From positions 32,001-96,000 of the IMG/VR virus record IMGVR_UViG_3300032232_001415: a stretch of DNA of 64,000 nt; one strand, written 5' to 3'. Positions within the stretch are counted from its first letter, which is position 1. Every line of letters starts with the position of its first letter. Positions 29,898 to 64,000 of the stretch are shown here, in pieces. A program made the position numbers and the translations under genes. A model generated the notes under the pieces. That model did no database searches, was not told where the DNA came from, and saw only the letters and a program-made list of their open reading frames with translations. The stretch comes from a virus (Duplodnaviria > Caudoviricetes).

Positions 29898-29899
29898 TT

Positions 29900-38478: not shown

Positions 38479-38479
38479 A

Positions 38480-40429: not shown

Positions 40430-40435
40430 GATAAC

Positions 40436-40762: not shown

Positions 40763-41748
40763 AAAACAAAACAAGACAACAATTATCTGAAAAGCTAAAT
40801 ACTACAGTTCTTTACTTATATGATACTGGCGTTATCCATAGCACCATTGTTCATTCTGTAATACTTTTATTATTAGCTATTTCTTTTCCTTTGTTAACAA
40901 ATAATAGGCCCTCGCCTATTGTTATAAGTTTTGCGTCCTTTGATGAAGAAACTATAAATTTTGAGACTATTCAGCCAATAGAAATCAAAATCCCCAAAGA
41001 GCCCAGCAATGATCAGCAAGAAACAGAATCAGAATCTTTTGTTGAAGATAAGCCAAATGATATTATACCAGTATCGATAGATGATGTTGTTGTAGAAGAA
41101 GATGTACAAAATGACTTAATTGAAGATTTATCAGTAGAAGATCTTAGTGAACAATTTGTAGCAGATATTTCGGATACAGAAGCTTCTGAGAAACCTTCTG
41201 TTACGAAAGAAAAAAAGATAGCAAGATCTGAGAAAAAAACATCATCTAATAAAAAAGGGAATCAGCCTGTTTTTGGCGATGGTAACTTGAATGCTAATAA
41301 TGATCAGGGCATAGGTATGATGAAACAGAGGCTGGCCGCATACGGAGCAAAAACCGGAGATGTCCAAATATCTTTATCGTGGGATACTATCGATGATATC
41401 GATCTTCATGTTGAAGTATATCCAATAGCATCTAGAATAAATTGGACCAGAAGATTCGGAAGATGCGGAGGAATGTTGGATATAGACATGAATGCTCATC
41501 CCTCTAGATTAAGTAATGTTCCTGTAGAAAACATTTTTTGGGAAAAAGGATTAGCCCCTTATGGAGAATATGTTATAGGAGTACACAATTATATGAATTG
41601 GTCAAGAAACGGAGCAACAAAAGTTAATCTCTTAATAACTATCGATGGAAAAAGTAAAATGATTCCATTAATAGTAAGATTTGGTGATCCTGTAACAAAA
41701 GTTACTAGTTTTATAAGAGAAAATCCAGCCTCTACGGCTAGTCGATAA
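40738..41748 (+). CDS. membrane-anchored protein with acidic linker and YfaP/DUF2135-like C-terminal domain
   Basis: TM segment STIVHSVILLLLAISF, an acidic linker, GDVQISLSWDTIDDIDLHV, GGMLDIDMN, VENIFW and GEY..VHNY. Confidence 0.7.
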   Translation: MAKNKRSVKNKTRQQLSEKLNTTVLYLYDTGVIHSTIVHSVILLLLAISFPLLTNNRPSPIVISFASFDEETINFETIQPIEIKIPKEPSNDQQETESESFVEDKPNDIIPVSIDDVVVEEDVQNDLIEDLSVEDLSEQFVADISDTEASEKPSVTKEKKIARSEKKTSSNKKGNQPVFGDGNLNANNDQGIGMMKQRLAAYGAKTGDVQISLSWDTIDDIDLHVEVYPIASRINWTRRFGRCGGMLDIDMNAHPSRLSNVPVENIFWEKGLAPYGEYVIGVHNYMNWSRNGATKVNLLITIDGKSKMIPLIVRFGDPVTKVTSFIRENPASTASR

Positions 41749-42244
41749 TACTTAATATCGGCCCCCACTTATTTGCTGGACAAGATTGATCCTTATGAGC
41801 CAGTTTATTCATATGATTAACTTCTCTAACTATTCTACATCCGCATAATAAACAACTATTATCTTGATAATGTTCACAAGATTCACAAATTGTTAATCTA
41901 GCTGATATTTCTTCTTGAGAACACATATTCTTTTCACTATTATCTATTATAGTTTCATTCTTCTCTTCAGCAATCTCTTTGGATCTTTCTATCACTCTTT
42001 CAAGAACAAGATTTTGCATATTGCTTGGATCATCCACCATCGTTATTCTGTGTTCTTTATAGTTTGGATCGGTAGCTTTTCTTATGGATAGTGAAAAATC
42101 TTGCATTTTTTTAAAACAAATCATTTTAGTATCAGCACTATCTAAACCTATTTTTATATTACAATAATTACATTGGTATACTTTCTTATTATTAAAATAA
42201 GTGTTAGTGTCTATTAAATCACAATGTGGATTCATATCATTCAT
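41738..42244 (-). CDS. Cys-rich hypothetical protein
   Basis: RLTICESC..CLLCGC..SCPANKW C-terminal domain and an N-terminal CNYC. Confidence 0.65.
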   Translation of the reverse strand: MNDMNPHCDLIDTNTYFNNKKVYQCNYCNIKIGLDSADTKMICFKKMQDFSLSIRKATDPNYKEHRITMVDDPSNMQNLVLERVIERSKEIAEEKNETIIDNSEKNMCSQEEISARLTICESCEHYQDNSCLLCGCRIVREVNHMNKLAHKDQSCPANKWGPILSIID

Positions 42245-48200: not shown

Positions 48201-50134
48201 TTTGCTGCTGATTCATAAGATGGAGCTAATTCATACTTATTATTAAATAAAGTATATCCACTAGCAATAGAAATATGATTTAATAATTGTCCATTTAAAT
48301 GAGCACTAGTAGTATTAATAATATTTCCAATAGTAAAAACTCCACTATTGCAACTATTATTGTAATGTCTAGCATCGCCTGACGTGCTAAATATAGCATC
48401 TCCTAATTGTACTGATTGTTGATAACTAAAATTTTTCTTGATCGGAGTATTTCGACACACTTTGGGTATTGTTCCGGTATCTGTTGGAGCAAACTTAATA
48501 TCTGATGCATTAATAGACATTTCAAAATCAAGATTTAAGTAAGCGTGAGCTGGCAGCAATTCTTTTTTTAGCTTTAATGAAGTTGTAGAATTTGGCGGGA
48601 ACCATAAATAACATCCGTATTTATTAGCTATGGTATTGATAAAATCAATTTTAGTTTTTACTATATTTAAATTATTAGCAGTATTAATTGGTTTTTTTAG
48701 CATCTGAGATTCAAACAAATCAATCTGATTATATATATTTCTAGTATAAGTTATACCAGATATATTTTCAAATTTTGGTTGTTTTAATAGATCAACTGTA
48801 ACTTCATCGAAATTAGGTCCGGTAGCTAATAATGCTGCTAGTTTTAATTTATTCAGTGGTGATGTTTTTTTAGTATCTGGAATATCTAGTGAACTTTCTA
48901 AAAAATCTAGTCTATTTAATATATTGAAGCACTTGTTATAGATATTAGTAGACATATAAATAAATTCTGATCCACTAGGAATAACTCCACTAATAACATT
49001 ATTCTTAATTAATTTTAAACCTGATGGACAAGTTTTTATATTTCCATTTATCGATGAGCCTTGAAGATTTAAGGGTTCTGGACCATCATTTGTAGCATAA
49101 AACATATCTCCAGGAGATATATACAAGTCAACGCCAGGTATCATTCTTTTATCTTGATCTTTTGGTATATCTTTATCAAAATATCTATACCAACATAAAA
49201 CCCCTGAACTATAATTCCATTTCCAATAAGATCCAAGTTTTTCTGTTTTTACAAAAATATTATAATGATCTTCATTTGAAAAACCGTAAGGCATAGTAAA
49301 TTTCGATGGTTCTGGTAACAAGTATTTATATGTGCCAGTTTTTGCTATATCTCCTATATTGCCGCTTAATACTGGAAAATCCCCACCATTAGTGAGATAA
49401 TTAGCGTGTGGTTTTAGTAAAATAAAATTACCAGCTGTTTTATTATTTCTTAGATATCTATTATATGATTGTTCATGAACATCTATTGTATCATGATAAG
49501 TATCCATATCATTAGGAGGTATTTCACCTATTCGTTCTTGAATTTTCCAATCACACCTTAATTCCGGAGAAGAGCTAAAAGAATTTAATGTTCTAGTAGT
49601 AAATATCTTTTCAAAACCTAATGATCTATTATTACATGCTGGAAATTGACGCATATATTTAAAATCATGAAAATGATCAATATAAGTAGAATTCAATACC
49701 GGCAATTTTGCAAGATAGTCATCTTTATATGTTCTGGTATCACAAGCTCCGGAACAACATGAAGCATATATATTGGGACTTTTATGTCCAGATGTATCCG
49801 TTAAACTCCATGTAAAACTATGTGGGCTATTTGGATCTTGACAATATGAGCAATCTAAAGATGTTTTTTCTACATCAATCTCATCATAAGTATCTCCAGC
49901 ATTAATACAGTTACAAGGATTGACGGCAACAGATTCAGATCGTGCTCTTATAAATGGTTCAACATAATTAATATTTGATTTAGAAGCTTCAATAAAAATA
50001 GGTCGCCAAATTCCACTCAATAATGGATTATACGAAGGTATTAAAGATACTAGTTTAGAAGAATCAACTGTGCAAGAGTCTAAATCTGATATATCTTGAA
50101 AAAAATCTTTTTTATATATGTCGCAGCATCCCAT
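42245..50134 (-). CDS. giant 2629-aa Cys-rich putative virion (tail/baseplate/adhesion) protein
   Basis: Uninterrupted 7.9-kb ORF in the structural block with Cys-dense N- and C-terminal regions. Confidence 0.6.
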   Translation of the reverse strand: MGCCDIYKKDFFQDISDLDSCTVDSSKLVSLIPSYNPLLSGIWRPIFIEASKSNINYVEPFIRARSESVAVNPCNCINAGDTYDEIDVEKTSLDCSYCQDPNSPHSFTWSLTDTSGHKSPNIYASCCSGACDTRTYKDDYLAKLPVLNSTYIDHFHDFKYMRQFPACNNRSLGFEKIFTTRTLNSFSSSPELRCDWKIQERIGEIPPNDMDTYHDTIDVHEQSYNRYLRNNKTAGNFILLKPHANYLTNGGDFPVLSGNIGDIAKTGTYKYLLPEPSKFTMPYGFSNEDHYNIFVKTEKLGSYWKWNYSSGVLCWYRYFDKDIPKDQDKRMIPGVDLYISPGDMFYATNDGPEPLNLQGSSINGNIKTCPSGLKLIKNNVISGVIPSGSEFIYMSTNIYNKCFNILNRLDFLESSLDIPDTKKTSPLNKLKLAALLATGPNFDEVTVDLLKQPKFENISGITYTRNIYNQIDLFESQMLKKPINTANNLNIVKTKIDFINTIANKYGCYLWFPPNSTTSLKLKKELLPAHAYLNLDFEMSINASDIKFAPTDTGTIPKVCRNTPIKKNFSYQQSVQLGDAIFSTSGDARHYNNSCNSGVFTIGNIINTTSAHLNGQLLNHISIASGYTLFNNKYELAPSYESAANAVGGKYKLCDENYLCDAQSAFTVNNNKSLWNTPNQRKVSVFNNEKAFNLTRSYPAIAYSTNIDRLGFHRDGGVYYDSNIFGSGNVVFVQGTTFSDGICEIKFTTKNVGIKLYEFSLNKLRDSTSGNARCPTFPTDQPCKCFPLSRITSHPYNCDGKLIYTNASNILYTPNISTLNSPSLKSYGGYPLSYVTELIGDTRIPNHPAVGSNIPTVDKKIDPLNPYECTKNVSFSLPNYVKTLWNLTLPNLNTNHSDIWVSVSDGSNLLNPSIIVWDDEELTTRNNPNFRRFTTKTTINNLVLWNRQQKTLFDKSNKFEPKINIELLNPFLEAALNNGEEPSETNILYTPLNCTTDVSYNNLDPRLINVGITIKQIPRKHILAFNMDPKIKSMGTLTKSFFHPNSGIVSASNFKDKTSLLFNKDTCTFDFDYERKLFLDSVIYSDSGIMFKGDLNDGVKNFIKVLNQLDNHKKIRLYLKVKNNWYEYLNSNIFGFYNPDKDETYPGYPLLFNYTNDLDYTYGPLIPAQAKKNVQLSYMYNMPNVGATGSISVPHYDDIYTYGPRLYPISTNKFYIDKDSTTKIIVDGSRAYFMVKEADSAIAINSIENISEEDLEKIIENTIIVDDNNKRWKYKGIGDKMTKESYVSLPPRNYYDNNFYESSIDYLKTNKDGYIANTDLKCILTSVKLIDLNDSTIQYDAKIKSKSLYSQLVDEGGKKITIFDSNKQKQYRKIFTVFELDLCSSCEIPLAEGVIDFSMIKSQNPIGVESFVIYDNMGNSLRSEYDSYLAQILYSTKWGDLARFDNKNQYTDILNSRFLYDKINYSYPKVPYQNMYNNLVINDTNTGLINFILTTSDPQKQSTKINISYHGETYFTIHQKYNIGQDISNVDPIYLSSSQQDVNNYLPFLDINFMNLSGIRYNSQASDLISNLKTNFDNHLLSTGNIYFSGIREKMPRSSLPADPIKTSGFFINIDKNALLKPLIFDKTFYHDTLRVDQPYYVLSKYTRKDTESNSTDCTTYYRPNLSVASENIGPYFNIGSLTNPVTGIDGKPFLDLPIYCDSDKLGPCDQLTCSMKTAGYTRLSASYQNYDYKYIKGSDLTNDSVEYYLSFDEGLFNGIGYQSIPYIQRFEIPPYSILNDKNGDNPNYCSSQTKNKPDRPFTYMDKNYQNELNSNVDNDKSTLVSNTDILANEMLFRVLYGEKQKISYDNIKKKTIVDLLTNKNRSVGYLLQYADIRTTPDKIYDLIPYDYSSNSDSSRRKISGNIDIAGVLKLGSKVKVTIGDLTINFEVKNVEGKVKIVAAGGGKTYETIIHHEKTIEERLVAIQKPGAPSPFGDNISYQLIGTCGDNIPRKDWNPFGYISKATVFGYDILAEYAKCEQCRTDPGNCQSFAGNLVSYTYMGFLFCDKHAIGDVYTTQAPCSIINEQSAEVSAGGASRGSTSCSIYATCVAANGYIDLSPAFRVGNFFDMCGGTLVQPLCGGTNCSAAPAPCEGNCYPLSYSNNLGQQVHDPVLAGYRNAGTPCECSNLPEIKYCQIVPNRCSCPQWAEGYPKIFTYQFEDCNYKFNLNGHIYRMKHGEPAKHSGKTSDIGNCNGFVPYEFKADGTATEHWGWTECIFPPPSSYDIYIEKTTTTNPYAPLCPTSLCSISYDNFSVNLSMGSVLGCFDILIKNDCPEITIEVPDNTFTVNDSINSECTTCDVINEKINMTPQNPKWETIIENKIAILGTFAIEGDLNKDAFCAGGTAHLGKGICSVPEPTFCWGDACYDGAGAVGMCGKTGNSAFVWNYGIACDLAGSPGMQFVPCTRGRGAGGLFNIGSQIRLEFGSDNGAVKGAKVAYWKSLMKQAFNDIAICRKSSEGININDLVEGVVPGSCRLKFKVISFPATAWRAGYEGGESTSATIGVHVAYYEYKYKRPKNIYDILIGSNYKKCNEALPSAPNSKHNITEKYKTPDCSNSPSCYDTTVDTCDTQDFCCKTSQRHLSEDF

Positions 50135-50136
50135 AA

Positions 50137-51780
50137 TTAATTACAGTTATAAGAAGTTAATGTCCAGTAACCATCCAAAAAAGTAAACAAGCCAATACCA
50201 CCTGGAGAAATTGCAAAATTTAATGGATTTTTATATGTTGTAGTATATTTTTGTAAATTTGGATCATCAGATAGTTTTATACTAGGATTATTTGGTTTAG
50301 TATATATTTTATATATTTCTACGCTGTTAGTAGAATTAACAACTCCGGAAGTAACAAATGGTCTGTGGCCTATCGGCTCATAAAAACCATTATTTGAATT
50401 GTATTTACAATATAGTGTGCCTCCTCTGGGAGCGGGGAAAAGACCCAATTGATCTCTTACAAAAACTAATCTTCTTAATCCTGTTGGGAGTGGACTATTA
50501 TCATAAGAAGAATCTATAATTTCAGCTCTTACTGGTGATGTATTAACAAGATCCTCCTCTATTACAACAAATACTGGTTTATAATTAGCTCCAACAGTCC
50601 ACACCCTTCCTGCTTCGTCCCATCTCAAATCAATAGGACCAACAGGCCATGTTCCTGGAGATTGAGCCCATCCTTTATAAAAAGTATTTTCTTTATATGG
50701 TTTTGACCAATATCCACTACCAGTTGATGTTGATATAAACTTCTGATTTTTACCAATAATATTACCATTGCTATCTCTTACTATGCTTCCTCCTTGAGTT
50801 TTTGGTTCTCCAGAAGAATTTGGAACAGGATATCCTTCTAGGTCATATCCCCAGCCATGAACCATCAATGGACCACGTAATCCAAAAAATCTCATATTAT
50901 TCATTACAGTAGGATCTGGTGGTATACTAACTCCTTGTGCTCGTAAATTCTTATACCATTCCGTCATATTTACATCATAATCCAGATATGATCTTTCTAT
51001 ATTAGCAGAATATATAGCTCTTAATCCATTATCTCCTGTGGGTGGAATCATACTAAATCCAACCAAATCAATACAGTGTCCACATACGTCCCCCTTCTGC
51101 TTATTAGTAAAATTACTAAATTCTCCAGTAGTAAGTACTATAGGATTCAATGTAGAATAGTTTATTACCGGAGAACCATTACCTGTTACTGGTATGATAT
51201 TAGATATAATAGTTAAATCATTTCCACTAGCTATTACATACGGAGGATACGATTCTTTTGGAGATGAGCTTGTGCTCATTTTTGATAATTTTTCTTCTAA
51301 TGTTTCACAAAAAGTACATATAATAGATTTTGTATCATATGATGATACTATGGCTGTTGCTCCTTGATTTTGTGTTATACTAGCTTGATCTTGAGGAATT
51401 TTGTATGTATATGTTTTTGTTCCATTACAAAATGGACAACCACTAGTTAAATATTTGCTAATATGAAAAGTACTAGAGTACGGCGTCGGATAAAAAGATA
51501 CTGGAGAAAATAATCCATCTAAACTCATGAATGATTTATGAGCATAATTATTTCCAATTTCGCTATTTGCTTCATGATTACTAAATATGTTAACATCAGA
51601 CTGAAGTCTCGGAAATTCTCTTGGATTACAATTTAATGAGCCCAATGAATATGGTTTAGTTGACCATTCTGGATTATAATTTAATTGTTGTTGTTTTAAA
51701 ATCGTAGCATCCTGATGAACAACAAAGTAATTATTTCCTATTAATACATTAATATTGTCTGTTTTTTTATTTTTTTTCAT
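50137..51780 (-). CDS. putative tail/baseplate protein
   Basis: RGPLMVHGWGYD and GPIDLRWD motifs, CPFC/CTFC pairs and structural context. Confidence 0.55.
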   Translation of the reverse strand: MKKNKKTDNINVLIGNNYFVVHQDATILKQQQLNYNPEWSTKPYSLGSLNCNPREFPRLQSDVNIFSNHEANSEIGNNYAHKSFMSLDGLFSPVSFYPTPYSSTFHISKYLTSGCPFCNGTKTYTYKIPQDQASITQNQGATAIVSSYDTKSIICTFCETLEEKLSKMSTSSSPKESYPPYVIASGNDLTIISNIIPVTGNGSPVINYSTLNPIVLTTGEFSNFTNKQKGDVCGHCIDLVGFSMIPPTGDNGLRAIYSANIERSYLDYDVNMTEWYKNLRAQGVSIPPDPTVMNNMRFFGLRGPLMVHGWGYDLEGYPVPNSSGEPKTQGGSIVRDSNGNIIGKNQKFISTSTGSGYWSKPYKENTFYKGWAQSPGTWPVGPIDLRWDEAGRVWTVGANYKPVFVVIEEDLVNTSPVRAEIIDSSYDNSPLPTGLRRLVFVRDQLGLFPAPRGGTLYCKYNSNNGFYEPIGHRPFVTSGVVNSTNSVEIYKIYTKPNNPSIKLSDDPNLQKYTTTYKNPLNFAISPGGIGLFTFLDGYWTLTSYNCN

Positions 51781-51796: not shown

Positions 51797-54700
51797 TTAC
51801 ATGAATCTAATGGTTCCGCCACCCATCGCTCTCATTTTATCTGTTAAATTATTTAATTTACTATTAAATTCTTTTCTTCTTTTTATAGTTTCTTGATTAA
51901 GCTGTTTTATTCTTTCGGCATTCTCTTTATTAAATAGTCCTAATTTTCTTTGATATGTTCTAAAATTATATGTAGTCGTTATACCACCACCCTCAGCAAT
52001 TTGAACAACAATACTGCTAACAATAGGGCCATTAAATACAGCCCCATAATATTGTATCATATCACCAATTTGAAAATTATCAAATCCTGGTATTTGTACA
52101 GAACCAGCTTCTAATGTTTGCTGATAATTAACATCTTCTGTAATTTTTGTCATAACATAATCATCTAATGCATTCATACCTCCAAAATTCCATGGTACTA
52201 AATTCTCATCAACTTGTACCTTTACTCCTCCAATCAAATTCTCAACCTCTTGTTCTGCTATATTTTTTCCATAATCTGGGAAAATGTCAGTAGCTATTAA
52301 ACCAGGATGATTAATCCATGGTCCATAAACATGAGTATTTATTTGAAGTGGCAATGCACAAAATAGAGGAGTCGCTGCTTTTTGAGCAAAATTATTATCA
52401 TCATCATAACTACTCGGAGATGATGTTAAGGCAGCATCCATATGATTGGCTAATCCTAATACATATCCTCTAAAATTATATGGGTTATACATATGGGCTA
52501 ATCTTAATATGCTCCTTAATTTTAATCCATTATTTACTGTTTGTTCGCTAGTTCTTCCTGGTAATAGAGCTAATGGACTATTTACCACTTTTGACATTCC
52601 TTGAGGAATACTTACTCCTTTAAAAACTCTAGCAAAGCTATCCATAGCTATAACAGCAGAAAGATTATTATCTGTTGGATTAATATTTGAGCCTATATTA
52701 ACCTTGTCTGATACCTTTAATATTGCTCTAGGTTTTCCGTTATCCGCCATCAAAAAATGTATATCTTGATCCGCAGTTGCTTTCACATAAAATTTATATC
52801 GTCCTTGTGTGCCTGTGTTATCATCAGAATTTAGGGTTTGAGGCACTGTCACACCATAAGCGTCTGGTATGTTTAATTGTACACACGGATATTCTATCAG
52901 CTTACATTCTTCTGATGACAATTTATGGTTTATTGATAGATAAAAATTAGATTCATGATTTGCATTTTGTGATGGATCAGAAAGATCTGCACCTATTTGA
53001 GCCCACCAATTAGATTCACAAAATCTACTATCAGGGGTAGTCCAAGGATTGCCAACATAGACATTTTTGTATAATAATTTTTTAAAACGTTTTGAATGGT
53101 TTTTTTCTACAGAAGCGTTATATCCTAATAATGCTGGGGTTTTGCCGCTTTCATCAGCAAAATGAGACCAATTAAAACCCCCAACAACCATAGTATCGTC
53201 TATCCAATTTCCAGCTTCTTCCCAGGCTCCATCTGTTGATATTTCATAGTTTGTATAAACCTTTCCACTTCCTTCTATAGCATAAATATCGTTTCCATTC
53301 TCATCCTGTCCTAAAACGATAAATGATCCATCATTGTTTGTTGCTGTTTGATAATCTTTATACCATCCCATGTCTGGGATTTTAACCATAAATTGTTTAC
53401 CATAATATTGATTACCAATATCTTGAAAAAATCTATGAATATTTTTTAAATCATTATATAGTGCTTTTGTTTCAGGAGCGAATCCATCGAGATTAACTTG
53501 TAAAGGACGACCATTAGCGTCTCTTCTGCTTCCAATAGCAATTATATCTCCTAATGATCTAATATAATAATTATATGATCCTGTTTTACCAATACCGTAC
53601 TTTGTTCTGAAAGCTTTATATAAAACTTCTGATATGTCTGTGGTAAAAATTAAATTATTAGTATCAAAAACATAAGACATCCATTCTGAAAATCCTGTTA
53701 TGGCTGCTCTTATTTCATTTTCTAAAACTACGAAATAAGGAGAAGTGGATTCTGTATCAGTACCATCTCCTCTTCCATCTGCCCAAAAATTAGGATTAAA
53801 ATGTGCTGCCCATGATGGTCCCCAAACTCCACCAAACAATGAATCTATCCAACTTTCGTAAGGAGTAAATTTGTTTAATGGCAAACTACATAATTCTTGT
53901 ATGTCAGCTATTCCGAATAATATTTGCAACTGTCCCATATTTTTATCTAAAAATACAGGGCGTATAAGATTATTCCATCCTACTCCAAAGTATGGAGAGA
54001 TCTGATCTTCAAAAAGTGGCACATTAGCACCAATATTAAATGGGGCACTTCCTTCGAATAGTATTCCATTATTTGCTACATTTCCAGCGAGATAATAATT
54101 TCCTTTTTTAATAGCATTTGATGTGCCAGCAGTAGCAAAGTATGTTTGATTATTAAAATCATCAGAAGCACTAAAAACAGCTGCTCCATTTTTATACTTA
54201 AAAGTATAAGATCTGGTAGAATATAAGTTAGGTTGTCTTATCTGATTAGGAGTAGCAAAATTCAAAAAGGCAGATGAATCATAGCTTATAAAAGATCCTC
54301 CACCAAAGTTTGCAAAAGGATCATATATCATAGTATTTTGTTTATATGCTAATCTTGTATTTTTTATTTGTAATAATCTCTTTTGCTTTCCTCCTATATA
54401 CATGGTTCTGGTATTAGAGTCAGAATATTCTTTACCCTGATTTGCACTATTAACTCCGCATTGAGTTTTATAATAATTTACTAATGCTTGTATTTGATTT
54501 TTTTTGGGTTGTGTTCTTCTTGAAACAGTTCTAATTTTAATAATGCCACATATTCCATTCTGAAGCTGAGAGGTTGTTGGAAATAGAAAATCTACTATAA
54601 AATCAAACCCGGCACCATCACAAATTTCTGTAATAAAATCTAAAATACTAATATTTGGCCCTGGTATTCTCACCCATTTCGGTGGCCTCGGAACATCAGA

Positions 54701-55858
54701 AATATCAATTTTTAACAAACACCTTCTTTGACTATCATAAGCTATTGTATTGGGACATATACCCATATGAGTAAGATTTAACGATGCGCCCAAACTTCCT
54801 ACTGAAGCAGCAAGAGGATCAATATCCGAAGAAGTATCATTTTCTCTAATAGTTCTACAAACAATAGCCCCATAAGGAGAAAATGGACTAATACAATCTG
54901 GATTGCTATTAGAATTTGGTCCTAGCATATTAACTAATGTATCATAAATAAATTGCGCAGACATTCCATTTTCATTTACTCTTGCATTTCCATATATTTT
55001 ATTTTTATATCCTTGATATTCTAAATAACCATATATATTAAAAATGTTAGGAATATTGCCTTGTGTTATAGTTGCATTATATGGATAATAATGGAAAGTT
55101 GGAGGAGTTGTTGATCCATCCACATTGTATGCTATTGGTCCAGCTAAGTTTTTTGTAGTAGGATTATTATTAGTATTTGGCCAAATACCACATACTGTTC
55201 CAGCGTAATGATCTATTATTAATTCACACCCTTTTAATAAATTAGAAAAACTTTTTAATTCGACATCATATGTTAGTATTCCACCCTGTGATGAATTTTC
55301 TTTCCATGATGATACAATTCCTCCAAAGCTAAAGTCTTTAAATTTAAATCTTACAGGAGTTCCTATTATTTCATATCCTTTGCTATTGAAGGTATTCAAA
55401 GATCCTGTTGAAGGCAAAAATCCTATATCTGGTCCTTGCCAAAATGCGTAATTACCGTCAAAACCATAACATACTTTTCCATTATCTTTCCATTCTGGCG
55501 ACAGAGATATATTTTCAGTGTCTCTACCATCTTCTTGTGCTTTCATTGCAAAAATAAGAGATTTATGCAAAGCTTTTGTCGGATCTTCAGTTGTATAATT
55601 ACCATCATTTTGCTTATTGAATGCTGTTCCACCAGCAACGCTGTCTGGCTGTTGAGCCCAATTATTGATAGCATTATCAACAGTTCCAGCGAACGCTGAC
55701 TGAGGATGATAACATGGATCATGTGCTAATGTTATATTTAAACTACTTTGATCTCCTCCCCATCCAAGATTACAATTAAAATTAACAACACTGCATCCTA
55801 AAAATAATGTTTGATTATACGGTCCTGCTGTAGTAAGTGGAATATTACAATATGTCAT
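51797..55858 (-). CDS. putative baseplate hub / tail-associated protein
   Basis: FLGCSV..F..NLGWG at the N-terminus, LVPWNFGG, and GGITTTYNFRTY followed by a terminal coiled coil. Confidence 0.55.
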   Translation of the reverse strand: MTYCNIPLTTAGPYNQTLFLGCSVVNFNCNLGWGGDQSSLNITLAHDPCYHPQSAFAGTVDNAINNWAQQPDSVAGGTAFNKQNDGNYTTEDPTKALHKSLIFAMKAQEDGRDTENISLSPEWKDNGKVCYGFDGNYAFWQGPDIGFLPSTGSLNTFNSKGYEIIGTPVRFKFKDFSFGGIVSSWKENSSQGGILTYDVELKSFSNLLKGCELIIDHYAGTVCGIWPNTNNNPTTKNLAGPIAYNVDGSTTPPTFHYYPYNATITQGNIPNIFNIYGYLEYQGYKNKIYGNARVNENGMSAQFIYDTLVNMLGPNSNSNPDCISPFSPYGAIVCRTIRENDTSSDIDPLAASVGSLGASLNLTHMGICPNTIAYDSQRRCLLKIDISDVPRPPKWVRIPGPNISILDFITEICDGAGFDFIVDFLFPTTSQLQNGICGIIKIRTVSRRTQPKKNQIQALVNYYKTQCGVNSANQGKEYSDSNTRTMYIGGKQKRLLQIKNTRLAYKQNTMIYDPFANFGGGSFISYDSSAFLNFATPNQIRQPNLYSTRSYTFKYKNGAAVFSASDDFNNQTYFATAGTSNAIKKGNYYLAGNVANNGILFEGSAPFNIGANVPLFEDQISPYFGVGWNNLIRPVFLDKNMGQLQILFGIADIQELCSLPLNKFTPYESWIDSLFGGVWGPSWAAHFNPNFWADGRGDGTDTESTSPYFVVLENEIRAAITGFSEWMSYVFDTNNLIFTTDISEVLYKAFRTKYGIGKTGSYNYYIRSLGDIIAIGSRRDANGRPLQVNLDGFAPETKALYNDLKNIHRFFQDIGNQYYGKQFMVKIPDMGWYKDYQTATNNDGSFIVLGQDENGNDIYAIEGSGKVYTNYEISTDGAWEEAGNWIDDTMVVGGFNWSHFADESGKTPALLGYNASVEKNHSKRFKKLLYKNVYVGNPWTTPDSRFCESNWWAQIGADLSDPSQNANHESNFYLSINHKLSSEECKLIEYPCVQLNIPDAYGVTVPQTLNSDDNTGTQGRYKFYVKATADQDIHFLMADNGKPRAILKVSDKVNIGSNINPTDNNLSAVIAMDSFARVFKGVSIPQGMSKVVNSPLALLPGRTSEQTVNNGLKLRSILRLAHMYNPYNFRGYVLGLANHMDAALTSSPSSYDDDNNFAQKAATPLFCALPLQINTHVYGPWINHPGLIATDIFPDYGKNIAEQEVENLIGGVKVQVDENLVPWNFGGMNALDDYVMTKITEDVNYQQTLEAGSVQIPGFDNFQIGDMIQYYGAVFNGPIVSSIVVQIAEGGGITTTYNFRTYQRKLGLFNKENAERIKQLNQETIKRRKEFNSKLNNLTDKMRAMGGGTIRFM

Positions 55859-55889: not shown

Positions 55890-57455
55890 TTAATATAGAC
55901 CTAATGGAGATATTTGCTGTCCATCACATCTTGTCCATTGCCATGTTTTTTGTTTGACAAATCTTCCTTCGCTAATAAACCAATTTTCACTATTAGCCTT
56001 TACAAAAGCTTTACACGATCCTCCAGCTCCAAATATATATGATGGATTAAGAGATTCAACAATTCCGGTTATAGCTTGATATGCTGTTCTTGGAAATTTT
56101 AGCCCACTTAAACTTGATGGTTTTGGCATAACAACCTCGAAAGTTACATCTCTATTTGAAGTTGTCCATGTTCCTAAATCTTGTAAAATTGGACCAAGTC
56201 TTCTTCCAAGAATAAATATTTCTGCAATTTGTTGAGTAGGAAAACTATCATTAACACTTAAAGTTTCACTTATTGATCCACTAATTAAATTTAATGGACG
56301 ATTATTATAAGTCCAACTATAAGTAACGGTACCTTCTGTTGGATTAAAGCCTTCTGTTATTCCATATGGTACTGGATTCAATGGAGATTCATTTCTACCA
56401 AAGAACCTTCTCATTATACCACTAGCATCGTTAGGATTATCTATAAAAGATCTTGCACGATCAAACATAACATTTTTAATACCAGAATATCCACTAATAG
56501 CATTTTTAAATTTACTTTCTAAAGCTATTCTTCCAGGATTAGCCATTAATGAACCACTTGCAGAAGTCCCTATGTTTGTACTATTATATATTAATCCAGT
56601 ATTAAATGGCTCTAAACCTTTTACAGTGCCTTGTATGGTTATTGTTTTTTGAAAACTATTATCATAAGCAGTATCAATACTAAAACTTTCAGCATATCCA
56701 GAAACGGCTCCGCTGGGAGTTGCTAGCCATGTATCTGTTATTCTATATGATCCATCTTTATCATTTACAGAAGTTGATCTTATAAAATTATATAACTGTA
56801 GACCAGATAACATTCCTGTTATTGAAATTCCACTAGCTATTTGGTATTTAACCCAATCTTTAGCATTTTCTATTGATGATTTACCACTTGGAATATATTT
56901 ACCAACCGCACCCAAAACTCTAGTTACTCTATAATGAGGATATCCTGTACCATTATTAAATTGTAAGTTTGGAGTTAATGAAGCTATTGGACTATTAACA
57001 TATGATGCATCTTCTAATGTTTCCATACTCCATTCGTCTTGAACACTAGAGACATAATATATTCCACTACCAGTAACTGCTATATTTATTTCTAACTCAA
57101 TAGTATATCCAATAGTATTAAGCCATCTATCGTTAGTTTTATCTGCTGAATATCTTAAAATTTTTGCTATACCAGTTACTAATGGAGTAGTTCCTCCACC
57201 AACACCAGTACAACCCAATTCAAAATTTTTGCCATCCACAAAGTTTTGTCTTAATCCGCTCTCAGCTTGTAAAAGTAATTGAAATCCTCTTTCTCCACTA
57301 GAATAATATATCTGACCTTCTAATCCTATGATTAATTTTTCAGCAATTTGTTTTCCAGCACCGTCTCTCTCATATTCTCTAGAAATAGAAACCTGAGGAA
57401 CCGGATATCCGCTTACAGCAGCAAATTGAAAACTTCCATATTTAATATATGACAT
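55890..57455 (-). CDS. putative distal-tail/structural protein, Ser-Gly rich
   Basis: Beta-rich 521-aa ORF (PVPQVSIS, ITIQGTVKGL, GPILQD) in the tail block. Confidence 0.55.
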   Translation of the reverse strand: MSYIKYGSFQFAAVSGYPVPQVSISREYERDGAGKQIAEKLIIGLEGQIYYSSGERGFQLLLQAESGLRQNFVDGKNFELGCTGVGGGTTPLVTGIAKILRYSADKTNDRWLNTIGYTIELEINIAVTGSGIYYVSSVQDEWSMETLEDASYVNSPIASLTPNLQFNNGTGYPHYRVTRVLGAVGKYIPSGKSSIENAKDWVKYQIASGISITGMLSGLQLYNFIRSTSVNDKDGSYRITDTWLATPSGAVSGYAESFSIDTAYDNSFQKTITIQGTVKGLEPFNTGLIYNSTNIGTSASGSLMANPGRIALESKFKNAISGYSGIKNVMFDRARSFIDNPNDASGIMRRFFGRNESPLNPVPYGITEGFNPTEGTVTYSWTYNNRPLNLISGSISETLSVNDSFPTQQIAEIFILGRRLGPILQDLGTWTTSNRDVTFEVVMPKPSSLSGLKFPRTAYQAITGIVESLNPSYIFGAGGSCKAFVKANSENWFISEGRFVKQKTWQWTRCDGQQISPLGLY

Positions 57456-57479
57456 ATTATTTCCTAATATATATTCCTA

Positions 57480-60400
57480 TTAAGGATTAGTATTTGGATC
57501 TACATTTGCAAACCAATTTAATTGATTAACTTGAGCCGTTGCACTCCATAACATAGTACCAGTACCAGAAACCTGAATATCAATAGCATGAGTATTGCTG
57601 CCATCATATCCTGTAGGCACAATTCTAACTCCAATAGCTTCGCTACCATTACTTAGTTTTGGACTATTAGCTGGTAAAAATCCTGTAATAAAAGGGGTAC
57701 CAACATTATATACTGTACCACCAGCACTCATAATTGTTCCTTCGCAAATAAAACCTCCAGCATTCCAATTTCCTCCATCACCATATCTCACACAAGATAT
57801 CATAATTTTATAGGTATATGCTCCAATAAATCCACCATTATTAGAATTAGTTAGATCAGTATTTCTGAAACAAATAGTATTAGTAGGACTTGGACCAGAG
57901 TCAAAATTAGTTTGCCAATCTGTTGTTAATGATTTAAGACTCGTATTTATTGTTCTGGTTCTTAAGTAATATTGGGCATATTGAGATAGTCCTTGAACAC
58001 CAGGAACATAGGTATTTGTTGGATTGGGTCTTAAGAAAGATCCTGCAGAAAAAGCGTGCATATGTTTGGTAAGATTCAACTTGGATTGATATCCAAAATT
58101 TATGCCAACGGGGGCATCAAGACTTGTGGTGGACAATCCGCTTCCATGCAATTGAAGTTGTTCTGATATGTTCCATGATCCAGCATTTGTGAAGGCAATC
58201 ACCTTGCCTCTGTCTGATATTGCACTTAGTGTTGTTCCATTACTTCTGAAAGTGCTAAGAGAAACAGTATAACTTCCAACATCTTCTGTGACTCTAATTG
58301 GATATGTTCCAGCAAAATTAGCTGTAACAGTAGCGGCTGTAGCCTCAACTAGACCATTTGCTCCAATTCTAAGATAATTACCACTAGTTAAAGTACTTGG
58401 CAGTCTTAAAGATCTAGTATACGTACTTCCATTAACATATAGTGCAGCCGGTGTTTCTATTGTATAATCATTATAACTAGTATTAATTAATACGCTACCA
58501 CTTGGAAGAACATGAAAAGCACGATTACTATTTCCCTGGTATGTTCCAACACCAGATTGATATATGCTAAATTTATTACTATATCCTTTTTTATTAAATA
58601 CAGTATCAACAACTCCTGTTGAACTTAATACAATATTATATAAGCCTTGAACATCAAAATCTGTAGATGAATCATCTTGTGTTGATACTATATTACTATT
58701 AGTTCCTATAGTTAATAAATTATAGTTATTATTAAATCTTAATTTACTATTACCACTTAATGATGCACTGTTATTATTAAAAGCTATAGAGTTAGGACCA
58801 ATTTGCCTATTAATAAATTGTCCATTATTATCTATTGATAAAATACCACCAGTTAATGATACCGGGCCTCTCAATGATTCTGTAATATTAAATCCTTCTG
58901 TGGTTCCACTATATGAAACTATATTATAGAAATTGACTTTTTCATTTTCTGGAGTAACATCAGCATGCATCACTCTTATCGCTTGTGCTCCTCCTGATCC
59001 CCAAATAGTAAAGGGCATTGTGGCAGCATCTGTTCCTTTTGAAGCATTTATTGTAAAACCAAAATCATTATCTGTAGGATCTTGTATAATAAAAATATTA
59101 TCATATAAATTAAGTCCATCATTATTTGGCATATATTTAATAGAGTTTATGCCACTACCAGCTTTATTATTAATTTTTACTAGTATTCCATTATTTGTGC
59201 CAGATAATTTAACAGGCAGCTGCCATGTGCCTTCTCCGTCAGATCCTGCTGTTAATACATGGTCAGCAGTTGTTGATGATCCGAGTCTTATGCGAGATGT
59301 TGTTGTTAATCCATTAATATCTAGTGTTGAATCTGGTGATGTTTTATTAATTCCGACTCTACTATTTGTTAGATCATGATGCTCCATAATATTACCAGCA
59401 GTATTCATAACAAATAATGCTGTTTGAGCAGTGCCGCTGTTAATAACCACCTTAGTATTATCTATAACTAATTTGTGTAGATTAGATGGTCCTATAACAA
59501 CAGAATAGTCATTGTTATTGGGTATAGAGATATTATTTCCAATAATTACCGATCCTATACCAGATGATATATTATTATTTCCAATAATAATTCCACTATT
59601 ATATAATACAGAATTAGAATTACCCAAAGCAATATTGTCTAATCCATAAATTTTACTATCTCTACTAATAGGATATATAACCCCACTATATACATTATTA
59701 CCTAGAATATTATCATCAAAAGTACTGTTAATAGCTAATGGTTTTCCTGATGGTATAGATCCAAAAGTAACATCTGATAGATCTAATAGGGTATAATCTC
59801 CATCATTAGAGTATTCTTGAACATTAGTTATTGTGGTAATAAATGTGGCATTTTTATTTGTTGGACTTCTTAATTGTACTAAAGCCGTATCGCTAACAAT
59901 ATAATTTAGATTATGAGAATTAACTCTTATTCTGCTTTGAGCCAAGTCTGGTACTGTGAAATTATTAATCTTCGATCCTAGTTTATTATTTCGCCCAAAT
60001 ACTAAACCAGATTGTCCATATACGCTATTAGAATTACCAACAACTATTCCATTGATAACATAAGAATTATTTCCAACAACAATAGATCCGCTACCAAAAA
60101 TTTCTGATGATTGAGAAGAATTATTTATACCTATAGAATTTGTTCCTAAAACAACTGTTTTTTGACCAATGGCGACAGAATTATCAGATTCTATATAGTT
60201 AGAATTTCCAAGTACTGAAGATTTATCAGTATTAATAATTTTATTATAAGAACCAACAACATTAATATTAGAACCAGAAATAGTATTCTTGTTTCCAATA
60301 AACAAATTAGAATTACTATATTTTGATAAATTATTGGTACCAATAGATATAGTATTTGTATTTATAGCATCATATGCTACAGGATTTCCAACAGCACTAC

Positions 60401-61844
60401 CATAAGAGTCTATATAAACTCCTGTTTGATTATTTAGTGCGCCTATAATAACATTATTATTACTAGCATTTATTAATGAATTTCCGCTGCCCAATATGAT
60501 ATTATTATTAAGAGTTCCACTAGCATTATTAGAATTGCCAATAATTAATAATATAGAACCATCCTGAGTTTTATTATTTTGTCCTATTAATAAAAGATCA
60601 GTTAATGATCCATTACTAAGTTCATTCCTGGCTCCTAATATAACTGTATTATCTAATCCATCCGATGTGGCATTATCAAACCCGATTAATATAACATTAG
60701 AAGTATCTGCTAAACTAATATCATTACTAATTAAAACTCCATTAGAAATATTATTAATATCATTCATTGATCCTATAGATATTAGACTATTTCCACTAGC
60801 ATTTACAAAATTACCATATATTAAATTTTCATTCCCTGATGATGTAACACTAGAACCAAAAACTGCATTATTATGTCCTTTTAAATTAGTATTATTTCCT
60901 ATATGTATATTATGATTACCAGAACTATCAGAATTAGATCCTATGAATATGCCGGATAATCCTCTGATAGTACTATTTTTAGAAAGTCCAAAAGAATCTG
61001 ATGTACTTAGAGTGGTATTGTCTATTAGAAAAATATTATTGATACCAGTAACATAGGAATTAGTTCCATATAATAAATTATTATTTCCAGTTACAGCATT
61101 TGAGAAACCTATAACTGCTAATCCACTACCATTTAATAAAGAATCATTAGAAATTGAGATTATTTTTGGTCCAGTTAATCTATTATTATTACCAACAGAA
61201 ATACTATTATTTATAGATACTCCAGTATTATTAGATCCTACTAGAGAAAATAATACTCCGGTAGCAGTATTTTTTTGACCAACTATAGAGTATTGAACGC
61301 TTCCTGATGATTTATTATCTCCTCCTAAAATAATATTAGATAGATTACCAACAAATATTTCTTTGCTTATTCCAGTATTATCAACCAAGAATTGAATTTC
61401 TCCACTAGTTTGTCCACCTTTCCAGTCTAAAATTCTTGATCTAATTTGAGCATAAGGTATTTCTCTATAACTATTGTCTCTTCCAGCAAGAGTTATAATT
61501 GCCGGATAACTTCCTGATACTGGAGTTGTTTGTGGATTATGAACTAATAATAAAGTAACTCCTGTTGGACAATTAGTTATACTTTCCACAATCATACCAT
61601 CTTTTGCACAGGGGGCGACAACATGAAGAACAGCGTCTGGAACACCTGTTCCTATTCCTAATCTACCATAAGCGGAATCAAAGTATACTTGGGCGCGATT
61701 TCCTGTTCCATAAATACCAAATGAGCCGCTAAGTGAAATTTCTCCACCAGATAATGGATTAATAATATTAGTTCTAATTCCACTATTAAAAGTTATGATT
61801 CCACTAATAGTTTGATCACCACTTGTATAAACGATATCAGGCAT
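57480..61844 (-). CDS. tail fibre / adhesin with YadA-like beta-roll repeats
   Basis: GRLGIGT..P and RVGIN..PDSTLDING fibre motifs, plus many N/S-x-x-(I/V)-G-x-x-N repeats. Confidence 0.75.
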   Translation of the reverse strand: MPDIVYTSGDQTISGIITFNSGIRTNIINPLSGGEISLSGSFGIYGTGNRAQVYFDSAYGRLGIGTGVPDAVLHVVAPCAKDGMIVESITNCPTGVTLLLVHNPQTTPVSGSYPAIITLAGRDNSYREIPYAQIRSRILDWKGGQTSGEIQFLVDNTGISKEIFVGNLSNIILGGDNKSSGSVQYSIVGQKNTATGVLFSLVGSNNTGVSINNSISVGNNNRLTGPKIISISNDSLLNGSGLAVIGFSNAVTGNNNLLYGTNSYVTGINNIFLIDNTTLSTSDSFGLSKNSTIRGLSGIFIGSNSDSSGNHNIHIGNNTNLKGHNNAVFGSSVTSSGNENLIYGNFVNASGNSLISIGSMNDINNISNGVLISNDISLADTSNVILIGFDNATSDGLDNTVILGARNELSNGSLTDLLLIGQNNKTQDGSILLIIGNSNNASGTLNNNIILGSGNSLINASNNNVIIGALNNQTGVYIDSYGSAVGNPVAYDAINTNTISIGTNNLSKYSNSNLFIGNKNTISGSNINVVGSYNKIINTDKSSVLGNSNYIESDNSVAIGQKTVVLGTNSIGINNSSQSSEIFGSGSIVVGNNSYVINGIVVGNSNSVYGQSGLVFGRNNKLGSKINNFTVPDLAQSRIRVNSHNLNYIVSDTALVQLRSPTNKNATFITTITNVQEYSNDGDYTLLDLSDVTFGSIPSGKPLAINSTFDDNILGNNVYSGVIYPISRDSKIYGLDNIALGNSNSVLYNSGIIIGNNNISSGIGSVIIGNNISIPNNNDYSVVIGPSNLHKLVIDNTKVVINSGTAQTALFVMNTAGNIMEHHDLTNSRVGINKTSPDSTLDINGLTTTSRIRLGSSTTADHVLTAGSDGEGTWQLPVKLSGTNNGILVKINNKAGSGINSIKYMPNNDGLNLYDNIFIIQDPTDNDFGFTINASKGTDAATMPFTIWGSGGAQAIRVMHADVTPENEKVNFYNIVSYSGTTEGFNITESLRGPVSLTGGILSIDNNGQFINRQIGPNSIAFNNNSASLSGNSKLRFNNNYNLLTIGTNSNIVSTQDDSSTDFDVQGLYNIVLSSTGVVDTVFNKKGYSNKFSIYQSGVGTYQGNSNRAFHVLPSGSVLINTSYNDYTIETPAALYVNGSTYTRSLRLPSTLTSGNYLRIGANGLVEATAATVTANFAGTYPIRVTEDVGSYTVSLSTFRSNGTTLSAISDRGKVIAFTNAGSWNISEQLQLHGSGLSTTSLDAPVGINFGYQSKLNLTKHMHAFSAGSFLRPNPTNTYVPGVQGLSQYAQYYLRTRTINTSLKSLTTDWQTNFDSGPSPTNTICFRNTDLTNSNNGGFIGAYTYKIMISCVRYGDGGNWNAGGFICEGTIMSAGGTVYNVGTPFITGFLPANSPKLSNGSEAIGVRIVPTGYDGSNTHAIDIQVSGTGTMLWSATAQVNQLNWFANVDPNTNP
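59970..61340 (-). repeat. degenerate ~14-residue beta-roll peptide repeats (protein level)
   Basis: Repeated NNIILGSGN / SISVGNNN / NLFIGNKN-type units. The DNA copies are divergent and the boundaries approximate. Confidence 0.65.
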
Positions 61845-61877: not shown

Positions 61878-64000
61878 TTAATTAATACTAATACCACCCT
61901 CAGTACTTGCTCTTAATTTATCAAACGCATTTTTAACACTATCTCTGACTAAATCTCCTATCGGTCCCTGTAATATATTCTGTAATGCTGATGCTCCATT
62001 AATAACTACTTCTACTTTATGAGTACCTTCTACATTAATTATTGGTGGTAAATTAATTTTTTGTAATTCTGATACAAAATTATTAAATTTATCAGTAAAT
62101 TGGCTCAATCCATCTAGTCCAATATTATTTGGTGCTCCATTATTAGATACACTATTTCCAGTAGTCGCACCACCAGAAACTATCTGTCTTTGATAGTCTT
62201 GTAACGCTTTAGTTGCTACTGTTATAGCATTATTAAAATCTCTAGAAGATTGTGTTAATGTTGTCAATATTTGACCAAATTCAGGAGAATCATTCTTTGT
62301 GGTATTCTGACTATTAGTTAAAGAAGGTGCCATATAACCAAGGTTAGCGTTATAATTTCTCATAGTGTTATATGTTAGTGGATCTCTATCCTGAATAGAA
62401 CTTAGTCTGCTTTGAAGACCACTTGGAAGAGAACGTCCGCTATCTTCATATTTTCTAGCAGAGACAAGGGATCTCATATCTTTATCTTCTCGATATGATC
62501 GTCTTCTTCTTTCCATTTCGTCTTGATATGCTTTTCTCTTTCTTTCTGCTTCTTCTTTGTATACTTCTCCGCCAGTAGCATACGCCCCAGCATTGATGCT
62601 CTTTAATAATGGTAGGTGTTTCTGAGTAGATTCTCTGTTTACTACAAATTCGCCCGGAGTTAACATGGCCGGAACAGTATCTGTGCCTTTTGGTTGATAT
62701 GGAACTAACGTTCCAGCAGAAGCATATACTATGCCTCCTCTCTTATATCCCATAGATTTCATTATTAGTTTTAAGGTATTATCATATAAATTATTAAAAT
62801 CATTAATATTTACTGTGTCGGCATCATTATACATTGCTCTGTCTATATCTTGTTGACTAGATCCTTTAATCAAATCCATAAATTGAACCATATTGGTAAA
62901 TACTTCCATACCGGGCATTTGTGTTTGATATAAGGTGTCGTGGCCAGTACGGCCTCTATGTAATTTTTGAACTAATGACCAACCAGCTTTGTTAGTTAAA
63001 TAATTATTCACATCAGCAGAAATATCAGTTTTCTTGCCGTATCCATCACTAATTTTTCCTTCATACATATCTTGCGTATATCCCATTCCTCCTCTAGTGC
63101 TAATGTCTTGTAGGGCGTGTGCCATTTCATGTTGAACTACTCCTTTTTGTATCTGTTCTTTGTTGAACATCATCCCATTATCTGTTTCTGGCAGACCCCT
63201 TTTTTCAGCACCAGCTCTGCCCATAAATCTTCCACGACCCCACTCAGACTCAGGAAATTCTTTTAAATCAACCCCATAATTTAATGATCCTCCAAAACCA
63301 ATACGGTTTTTATGCTTATTTTCTCCACTTTTAGACTTACTAATCAATTTTTTTGCACCCTCTGGGCTACTAGTATATGGTAGTAGCTTTTGAATGAATT
63401 CTTCTCTCGCAGCTATCATCGTATCAAAATCCGTTACGTTTATTTTAGCATATTGTCCTGCTCCCGCGAAGGTTGATTCCTGTCGATTCGGTCTAGGAGG
63501 CGGAGTATTAACAGCAGGATCACGAGGCCCCATTGTTTCGTGGGGCAAGCTCTCTGTTTTTGGATTTAATCTTTTTACGCCAGCTTCAGGATCCAGAGAT
63601 CCAATTTCTGGATCCAATATATTTTGTTTAGGTCTTAGTGACTTATTTAGTATGTCTGGTAGTTTTCTATTTTGCGGATCTAACTCATTTGCTTGTAATA
63701 GTCCATCTTTGTTGATATCCCAAAATTTAAAAATAACAGAAAGTTCATCTTTGGTTAAATATCCATCTTTTAAGCGAGTTAGATTAGTATCACTATCAAT
63801 CATGAATCCCATAATAAAGTCGGTTTTATCATATCCTTTGAATTCCTCCTTCCTTCTTTGGGTCTGTGTTTGGGCAGACCTGAACACGTTATCAAAAGAT
63901 GCTTGAGTCTTTGACATCCCCTCAGGAGTATATAATTTTTCATCTCTTATTCTTTTTAATGCTTCAATATTGTTTGGAAGTTTTGCATATTCTCCCTTCC
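61878..64000 (-). CDS. tape-measure-like protein, C-terminal part (5' truncated by the window edge)
   Basis: The frame stays open from 63998 through ATG 63917. GTDTVPAMLTPGEFVVNR and YxxGG motifs are typical of TMP C-termini. It also carries HEMAH and an EF-hand. Confidence 0.75.
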   Translation of the reverse strand, partial: KGEYAKLPNNIEALKRIRDEKLYTPEGMSKTQASFDNVFRSAQTQTQRRKEEFKGYDKTDFIMGFMIDSDTNLTRLKDGYLTKDELSVIFKFWDINKDGLLQANELDPQNRKLPDILNKSLRPKQNILDPEIGSLDPEAGVKRLNPKTESLPHETMGPRDPAVNTPPPRPNRQESTFAGAGQYAKINVTDFDTMIAAREEFIQKLLPYTSSPEGAKKLISKSKSGENKHKNRIGFGGSLNYGVDLKEFPESEWGRGRFMGRAGAEKRGLPETDNGMMFNKEQIQKGVVQHEMAHALQDISTRGGMGYTQDMYEGKISDGYGKKTDISADVNNYLTNKAGWSLVQKLHRGRTGHDTLYQTQMPGMEVFTNMVQFMDLIKGSSQQDIDRAMYNDADTVNINDFNNLYDNTLKLIMKSMGYKRGGIVYASAGTLVPYQPKGTDTVPAMLTPGEFVVNRESTQKHLPLLKSINAGAYATGGEVYKEEAERKRKAYQDEMERRRRSYREDKDMRSLVSARKYEDSGRSLPSGLQSRLSSIQDRDPLTYNTMRNYNANLGYMAPSLTNSQNTTKNDSPEFGQILTTLTQSSRDFNNAITVATKALQDYQRQIVSGGATTGNSVSNNGAPNNIGLDGLSQFTDKFNNFVSELQKINLPPIINVEGTHKVEVVINGASALQNILQGPIGDLVRDSVKNAFDKLRASTEGGISIN

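Follow-up and report, generated by a model that had tools for sequence, protein, structure and literature searches.

An inherited excess of Ser-Gly dipeptides in the outer tail and fibre proteins of a lineage of large uncultured phages

Ser-Gly (SG) dipeptides stand out in two adjacent genes of a 64,000-nucleotide stretch of tailed-phage DNA (positions 32,001 to 96,000 of IMG/VR record IMGVR_UViG_3300032232_001415), which we call the window and whose first letter is position 1 in the coordinates given for it. These genes encode a 521-aa protein, read here as a tail hub, and a 1454-aa fibre-like protein. A first-pass annotation, made from the letters alone, suggested that the serines could be acceptors for glycosyltransferases (GTs) of the phage itself, which would give the virion a glycan shield. 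The locus thus raises the question of whether the dipeptide is truly over-represented and, if so, whether it marks sites for sugars or serves the fold of the proteins that carry it. We found that the excess is real and inherited and, with modest confidence, we read it as a structural signature of the lineage's beta-rich tail-tip proteins.

A recount agreed with the hand counts of the first-pass annotation: the 521-aa protein contains 15 SG and 6 GS, the fibre 34 SG, and the DnaB helicase and the 1353-aa neighbour of the hub two SG each, while the 2629-aa structural protein has 21, where about 20 had been given. All six tetrapeptides quoted for the 521-aa protein are present, as are the five SG near the N-terminus of the fibre (residues 8, 14, 21, 32 and 39). 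In 20,000 composition-preserving shuffles of the 521-aa protein, 5.9 SG were expected (observed/expected ratio, O/E, 2.5; z 4.2; p ~2.5e-4), making SG the top outlier of 89 testable dipeptides, with GS at expectation (6 vs 5.9). SG also ranked first of 183 dipeptides in the fibre (34 vs 20 expected, O/E 1.7, z 3.5), where GS was raised too (31 vs 20) and SS and GG were depleted. In the 2629-aa protein, 21 SG compared with 14.3 expected (z 1.9) and SG was not among the top dipeptides. After correction for composition, the claimed enrichment therefore stands for the hub and the fibre and falls away for the third protein. The 1353-aa protein is depleted in SG (2 vs 8.2, z -2.4) with normal GS (11), and the part of the tape measure encoded in the window has 4 SG vs 4.2 expected. 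The observation that SG is often followed by a hydrophobic residue likewise held in the hub (11 of 15 sites; SG-hydrophobic 11 vs 2.3, z 5.9) and not in the fibre (11 of 34).

Such an excess could be an artefact of composition, repeats or nucleotide bias, with no selection acting on the dipeptide itself. The hub and fibre are indeed rich in Ser and Gly (~11% each), the fibre carries a heptad Gly repeat, and AGY-GGN codon pairs account for most of the excess in the two window genes (12 vs 2.9 and 19 vs 7.7), TCN-GGN pairs being at expectation. Nevertheless, we find this explanation barely credible, as every shuffle, whether it preserved overall composition, composition within 20 residues or secondary-structure class, left a z of at least 3.2. 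The excess remained under local shuffles with windows of 20, 40 and 80 residues, which rules out local compositional patches. When the 521-aa protein was shuffled within its predicted helix, strand and coil classes, 6.35 SG were expected (z 3.9), which rules out mere co-localisation of Ser and Gly in loops. The repeat is not the source either: in fibre residues 181-660 Gly recurs with a period of seven (26 Gly pairs spaced by seven residues, where 6.7 were expected), and this segment has surplus GS (15 vs 8.8) without an SG excess (10 vs 8.8), so that the heptads explain only the raised GS. As for the codons, AGY accounts for 50-55% of the Ser codons that precede Gly vs 31-39% of those elsewhere, and this holds for every gene class, both in the window and in two complete relatives that we assembled for a genome-wide view (G002, 149.5 kb, and G011, 201 kb). 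A DNA motif or codon-pair origin can thus be discarded, the AGY preference being a genome-wide codon-pair bias superimposed on an excess that exists at the protein level; SG-rich genes of G002 are abundant in TCN-GGN pairs as well. Finally, the excess recurs in homologues down to ~30% identity. These tests confirm that the SG excess in the hub and fibre is real and order-specific beyond composition, local composition and secondary-structure class.

The excess is inherited and lineage-specific. Among 120 hub homologues, with identities down to ~28%, the mean O/E was 2.0 for SG and 1.2 for GS. In the pooled hub family (119 members) SG was the most over-represented dipeptide (O/E 2.06), followed at a distance by TG (1.47), and NG was under-represented (0.64). 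SG occupied 31 columns of the hub alignment at a frequency of at least 10%, roughly double the number for any control dipeptide, and 57% of its occurrences fell in columns common to at least 25% of the sequences. Similarly, the 15 fibre homologues (~40% identity) had 32 SG columns common to at least half of them. About 30 positions of the hub alignment and about 65 of the fibre alignment repeatedly carry a small hydroxyl residue followed by Gly. Both proteins were enriched at the syntenic loci of 16 relatives (fibre O/E 1.4-2.3, hub 1.4-2.8), and the 1353-aa homologues of the closest relatives shared the depletion seen in the window (O/E 0.35-0.54). The residues flanking SG tend to be hydrophobic (54% of those before and 63% of those after, vs 38% background).

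Within these columns, Gly is retained more often than Ser, with values of 0.52 vs 0.38 for the hub and 0.78 vs 0.56 for the fibre. Where Gly is retained, 80% of the residues preceding it are Ser or Thr, and Asn and Asp occur at 0.4x background. One hub sub-clade (P0084, P0086, P0087 and P0091, from contigs G021 and G022) has only 0-3 SG. At the best-conserved sites, 321 and 392, its members keep the Gly and replace the Ser by Arg, Gln, Asn or Pro, which suggests that the constraint is on the Gly and that the preceding position is exposed and can vary freely. In G021 the hub is free of SG, yet the fibre is still SG-rich. The SG-free hub homologues (L048 1739-3781 and L049 10001-11971) are ~650-720 aa long and carry insertions, with no SG vs ~4 expected and 7-8 GS.

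How far the excess extends through the virion was apparent from the two complete relatives. The strongest excess in G002 and G011 was found in giant fibre-like proteins encoded upstream of the tape measure, one of 3409 aa in G002 (40069-50298; L028:69-10298; SG 77 vs 34.7, z 8.0) and one of 4112 aa in G011 (60832-73170; SG 82 vs 41.7, z 7.0). An Mtd-type ...ISGIKTF motif is present in one of these proteins; in the window phage, the corresponding gene lies past the window end. A 1274-aa Mtd_N-type tail fibre of the complete relatives was enriched as well (z 4.1). Conversely, no SG excess was detected in the terminase, the likely portal and capsid proteins or the tape measure of G002 and G011 (G002 tape measure 15 vs 23.2), and O/E in the remainder of these genomes was 1.1-1.4. 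As the giant fibres are enriched and the capsid, portal and tape measure are not, the signal belongs to outer tail and fibre proteins rather than to the whole virion. The pattern, which holds for only two of the three proteins that the first-pass annotation singled out, is nevertheless broader than was seen there, but the proposed glycan-shielded virion is not indicated, since the likely capsid and portal proteins are unenriched. One cytoplasmic enzyme of the lineage, the ribonucleotide reductase (RNR), also has an SG O/E of 2.2; its product in the window is 1089 aa long, compared to 730 aa in G002, and has an SG O/E of 1.8.

For comparison we used ~75 proteins of phages lambda, T4, T5, BPP-1 and Flavobacterium phage 11b, none of which exceeded z 3.1. 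T5 pb1, which equals the fibre in Ser and Gly content, had an SG O/E of 0.97. These controls rule out that an SG excess is a generic property of tail fibres. Five lambda proteins (C, E, H, J and O) had O/E values of 1.9-3.0 without any glycosylation machinery in that phage.

What kind of proteins carry the excess? At the thresholds used, the 521-aa protein matched neither Pfam nor PHROG families, distal-tail protein (Dit) models included, and a profile of its family found nothing significant among PDB sequences. Its AlphaFold model (predicted local distance difference test, pLDDT, 81) is made up of recurring beta-beta-alpha-beta sandwich units. Modelled residues 1-126 align in structure with the N-terminal domains of the Dit proteins of monocin, 80alpha, p2, TP901-1 and SPP1 (Z 9.5-11.1; root-mean-square deviation 2.5-3.0 over 107-112 residues), and Foldseek also matched the model to many tail-tube, tube-initiator and baseplate proteins. 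We therefore read the protein, on the strength of its predicted structure, as a Dit-like hub with a tail-tube fold. It shares with Dit the N-terminal tube-like beta-sandwich "belt" domain. Unlike Dit, whose gene lies directly downstream of the tape measure gene, its gene is separated from it by that of the 1454-aa protein, both in the window and in 16 relatives. Twelve of the 15 hub SG sites fall in predicted coil (vs 45% coil overall), mostly 1-4 residues from the end of a strand or helix. The other three lie inside predicted helices, among them the best-conserved site, ISGYSG.

The fibre is predicted to form a beta-solenoid of heptads (xxNxhxG) between residues ~170 and 660. In the model of its residues 1-700, this part consists of 5-residue strands and 2-residue turns with a pLDDT of 85-94. 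Foldseek matches to beta-helices were weak, with low TM-scores, and included pertactin, Ag43 and tailspikes. The fibre thus resembles beta-helical tailspikes and autotransporter passengers in being a confidently modelled all-beta solenoid, but the resemblance is only loose. A match to the ryegrass ice-binding protein, whose beta-roll is built of the heptad xxNxVxG (PF21300), was also weak (E-value of 0.0044) and below the Pfam cut-off. The first 170 residues were modelled poorly, with a pLDDT under 50 over the SG-rich N-terminus (residues 1-60). In this N-terminus the five SG fall within 40 residues (TSG..ISG..NSG..LSG..LSG), and relatives retain a similar ...TISGxLxIGSG...TSG... pattern.

Any explanation has to account for the excess itself, the strong preference for SG over GS in the hub, the conservation of the sites, their predicted location in loops and at strand edges, and the tighter constraint on Gly than on Ser. 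Tight turns and bulges of beta-hairpins that depend on Gly, such as the type II turn and the G1 bulge, as well as ST-turns and helix caps, are textbook structural motifs. The sites studied here resemble these motifs in that a small polar residue and then Gly, the more conserved of the two, stand between hydrophobic strand residues, and in that they occupy loops and the ends of strands or helices. They differ in their unusually high frequency, in the under-use of Asn and Asp at the first position, and in their absence from control tails. We infer from this likeness both a turn geometry and a reason for choosing Ser over Asn or Asp. Gly would let the backbone adopt the conformation that a tight turn, bulge or helix cap requires, the preceding and presumably exposed position would be filled by Ser, with Thr as the second choice, and the flanking hydrophobic residues would anchor the turn in a beta-sandwich or solenoid core. 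It speaks for such a structural habit that the enriched proteins are fibre-like or beta-solenoid, and that an SG O/E of 2-3 also occurs in proteins not known to be glycosylated, namely the five lambda proteins and the RNR of the lineage. Several observations weigh against it. Generic turns would also use Asn-Gly and Asp-Gly, yet Asn and Asp are disfavoured before the conserved Gly, and NG is depleted in both hub and fibre (O/E 0.52-0.64). Moreover, control tail and fibre proteins of similar composition lack the excess, so a structural account must assume a habit of this lineage. A purely structural account also does not predict that proteins of the same module are SG-depleted.

The disfavour shown to Asn may have a chemical cause. 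Asn-Gly and Asp-Gly readily deamidate and isomerise, and long-lived environmental virions might avoid them by using Ser-Gly and Thr-Gly at polar-Gly turns. NG is depleted not only in the hub family but also in the window hub and fibre taken together (13 vs 25) and in the 3409-aa G002 fibre (21 vs ~31, the latter being a sum of per-segment expectations), whereas control tail proteins use it freely (T5 pb3 12 vs 4.8; an 11b protein of 930 aa 14 vs 6.5). The AGY codons favoured before Gly are also one transition away from the AAY codons of Asn. Still, this variant seems improbable to us as the whole explanation, as NG falls short by ~12 in the two window proteins, less than their SG surplus of ~23, a mild NG depletion (0.8-0.9) is seen genome-wide, enzymes included, DG is not depleted, and the AGY preference, being genome-wide, is not specific to SG sites. 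A structural habit is the most economical explanation, and avoidance of Asn-Gly may reinforce it.

Could the serines be glycosylated instead? On this reading, Ser or Thr before Gly in exposed loops would be O-glycosylated in the cytoplasm by soluble GTs of the phage, which would thereby decorate its distal tail and fibres. We consider it unlikely, although a fair number of observations are compatible with it. The window encodes many sugar-pathway genes, and its GT1 pair is conserved in all complete relatives. Hydroxyl residues predominate before the retained Gly at the expense of Asn and Asp. The sites are mostly predicted loops that tolerate Arg or Gln, which suggests exposure. The excess is lineage-specific, absent from the control phages, and confined to outer tail and fibre proteins without extending to the tape measure, and the depletion in some neighbouring proteins can be read as avoidance. 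There is also a precedent: in the beta-helix of TibA, TibC attaches heptose to Ser-313, which stands in the sequence ...QNSGGAV... (PMC4358343). By analogy with the strand-loop-strand sites of TibA and AIDA-I, an acceptor role could even coexist with a structural one.

An SG sequon is not part of any known bacterial or phage O-glycosylation system, and a recent review lists none for bacteria (PMC12645811). Conservation of Gly above Ser also runs counter to the acceptor reading, as do the RNR, a cytoplasmic enzyme with an SG excess, and the three hub sites in helices, which include the best-conserved one. Nor does the excess follow the GTs, as the first-pass annotation had proposed it might. 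The number of GTs was uncorrelated with SG O/E (rho 0.006), and GT2 was missing from two complete genomes with hub O/E values of 2.15 and 1.33. GT9 was found in only two of 20 relatives, with weak matches below the cut-off, and was absent from nine of the ten complete relatives with the excess, including G002 and G011, which have the strongest excess of all. GT1 matches, in contrast, occurred in 19 of 20 related contigs and in every genome at least 90% complete, and most of the 19 encode a pair comparable to that of the window (~550-590 and ~375-425 aa). Because GT1 is universal in complete relatives, this core pair offers no contrast of presence and absence. G021, however, retains it (559 and 378 aa) alongside its SG-free hub. 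The GT1 pair would most plausibly supply the enzyme for the acceptor reading, being the only candidate whose presence does not contradict the sequon idea. All tests of that idea were either negative or uninformative.

Comparison with known glycosylation systems leads to a similar picture. TibC and AAH, which act on TibA and AIDA-I, are bacterial autotransporter heptosyltransferases (BAHTs), soluble cytoplasmic enzymes of the GT9 family that O-glycosylate serines, not threonines, in short beta-helix loops, and TibC has an iron finger formed by Cys-339, 342, 358 and 370 and a 97-residue N-terminal barrel (PMC4358343). Like that system, the window encodes ADP-heptose-type genes and a GT9 enzyme, together with a fibre that has a predicted beta-solenoid. 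The HldE domain I-like kinase (E-value of 2e-33) and domain II-like adenylyltransferase (E-value of 9e-33), encoded at 12339-13504, both score below the equivalog cut-offs. The GT9 heptosyltransferase, however, is short and split by a stop into two open reading frames (ORFs) of 145 and 187 aa, and its 332 aa contain a single Cys, so it has no four-Cys iron finger. At an E-value of 0.01 or better, neither half matched TIGR04414, the model for TibC and AAH, their best matches being lipopolysaccharide heptosyltransferases, and none of the 20 related contigs matched this model. The module thus lacks BAHT features. The substrate of TibC and AAH is a beta-helix with Ser in short loops between strands; the fibre has a predicted beta-solenoid (residues 170-660), but this segment lacks an SG excess, and the hub is no beta-helix. 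Enzyme and substrate do not co-occur, most complete relatives keeping the excess without GT9. The GT9 and ADP-heptose module is the only link to known O-glycosylation of Ser in a beta-helix, and its rarity among the relatives makes it accessory.

Mycobacteriophages provide another comparison. According to two papers that summarise Freeman et al. (2023), their GTs modify virion proteins and the glycans are located at the C-termini of capsid and tail-tube subunits (PMC12619734, PMC11600133). The window likewise encodes phage GTs (the GT1 pair and GT2), but the candidate motif is dispersed and internal, lies in the hub and fibres, and is not in excess in the likely capsid and portal proteins. Cytoplasmic flagellin glycosyltransferases use no sequon and may read hydrophobicity patterns (PMC12645811). 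The first-pass annotation had drawn its parallel with eukaryotic proteoglycans, in which the chondroitin sulfate sequon requires an acidic cluster near the Ser-Gly (PMC13405426). The dipeptide is shared, but the analogy fails on context: the acidic cluster is absent, flanks are hydrophobic, and Asp and Glu are depleted within four residues of SG, where they make up 5.4% of residues in the hub family (background 8.4%) and 4.9% in the fibre family (background 6.1%). No xylosyltransferase-type family was found among the GT ORFs scanned, whose Pfam matches were only GT1-type, GT2 and GT9; several ORFs at 35710-40429 had no Pfam match.

The features discussed are listed in Table 1. The tail-module genes follow one another in the order giant tape measure, 1454-aa, 521-aa, 1353-aa, 547-aa and 2629-aa protein. 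As called on a sibling contig, the tape measure product is 5549 aa long. Pfam and PHROG searches gave no match for the 2629-aa protein.

Table 1. Coordinates, in the window, of the tail-module genes and of the sugar-related genes.
Feature	Position	Strand	Remarks
Sugar cluster: GT2, nucleoside diphosphate (NDP)-sugar dehydratase/epimerases, methyltransferases, thiamine pyrophosphate (TPP) enzyme, sulfotransferase-like ORF	65-10889		
GT2 genes	891-2009 and 9585-10889		
ADP-heptose-like module: cupin, HldE-kinase-like, HldE-adenylyltransferase-like, split GT9 heptosyltransferase	11338-13968	-	NCBIfam and Pfam matches
GT1-type pair, 566 and 373 aa	32901-35719	+	PF00534 and phrog_2170 matches
2629-aa structural protein	42245-50134	-	Marginal SG excess
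1353-aa structural protein, neighbour of the hub	51797-55858	-	SG-depleted
521-aa Dit-like hub protein (predicted)	55890-57455	-	Strongest SG excess within the window
1454-aa fibre-like protein, between tape measure and hub	57480-61844	-	Predicted heptad beta-solenoid at ~170-660
Giant tape measure gene, C-terminal part, continuing past the window end	61878-64000	-	No SG enrichment

The window phage is large and uncultured, with ~30% G+C, and encodes a DnaB helicase, a primase, a split DnaE-type polymerase and a ribonucleotide reductase. Its relatives sit on viral contigs of 90-230 kb. A tblastn search of 50,697 phage records with the hub and fibre found nothing, and the phage has no close cultured relative. 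We do not equate it with the moraphages, a different lineage of large aquatic phages that have a family B polymerase and in which the tape measure was unidentified (PMC12619734). The DnaE-type polymerase (28026-32422, plus strand) is split into ORFs of 623 and 548 aa with another gene (30085-30786) in between. In the RNR (14080-17349, plus strand), residues ~318-576 match PHROGs of helicase and endonuclease type, suggestive of an inserted intein or homing endonuclease. The 1000-aa large terminase of G002 (20225-23227; L027:225-3227) has internal matches to HNH and endonuclease PHROGs, suggesting an intein-like insertion there as well.

If the excess is structural, as we are inclined to think, it represents a lineage-specific sequence habit, whose main use would be to flag outer tail and fibre proteins in phages that otherwise resist annotation. 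In the fullest version of the acceptor idea, which strikes us as quite unlikely, Ser/Thr-Gly in exposed loops would be the acceptor motif of a phage-encoded cytoplasmic O-glycosylation system, most plausibly the GT1 pair together with its sugar-nucleotide module, that coats the distal tail and fibres of a widespread group of uncultured large aquatic phages. The motif would then be avoided in those proteins that have to remain unmodified. Should the serines nonetheless prove to be glycosylated, this would be the first virion-glycosylation sequence motif in tailed phages beyond mycobacteriophages, and it would account for the presence of some two dozen sugar-pathway genes in this lineage.

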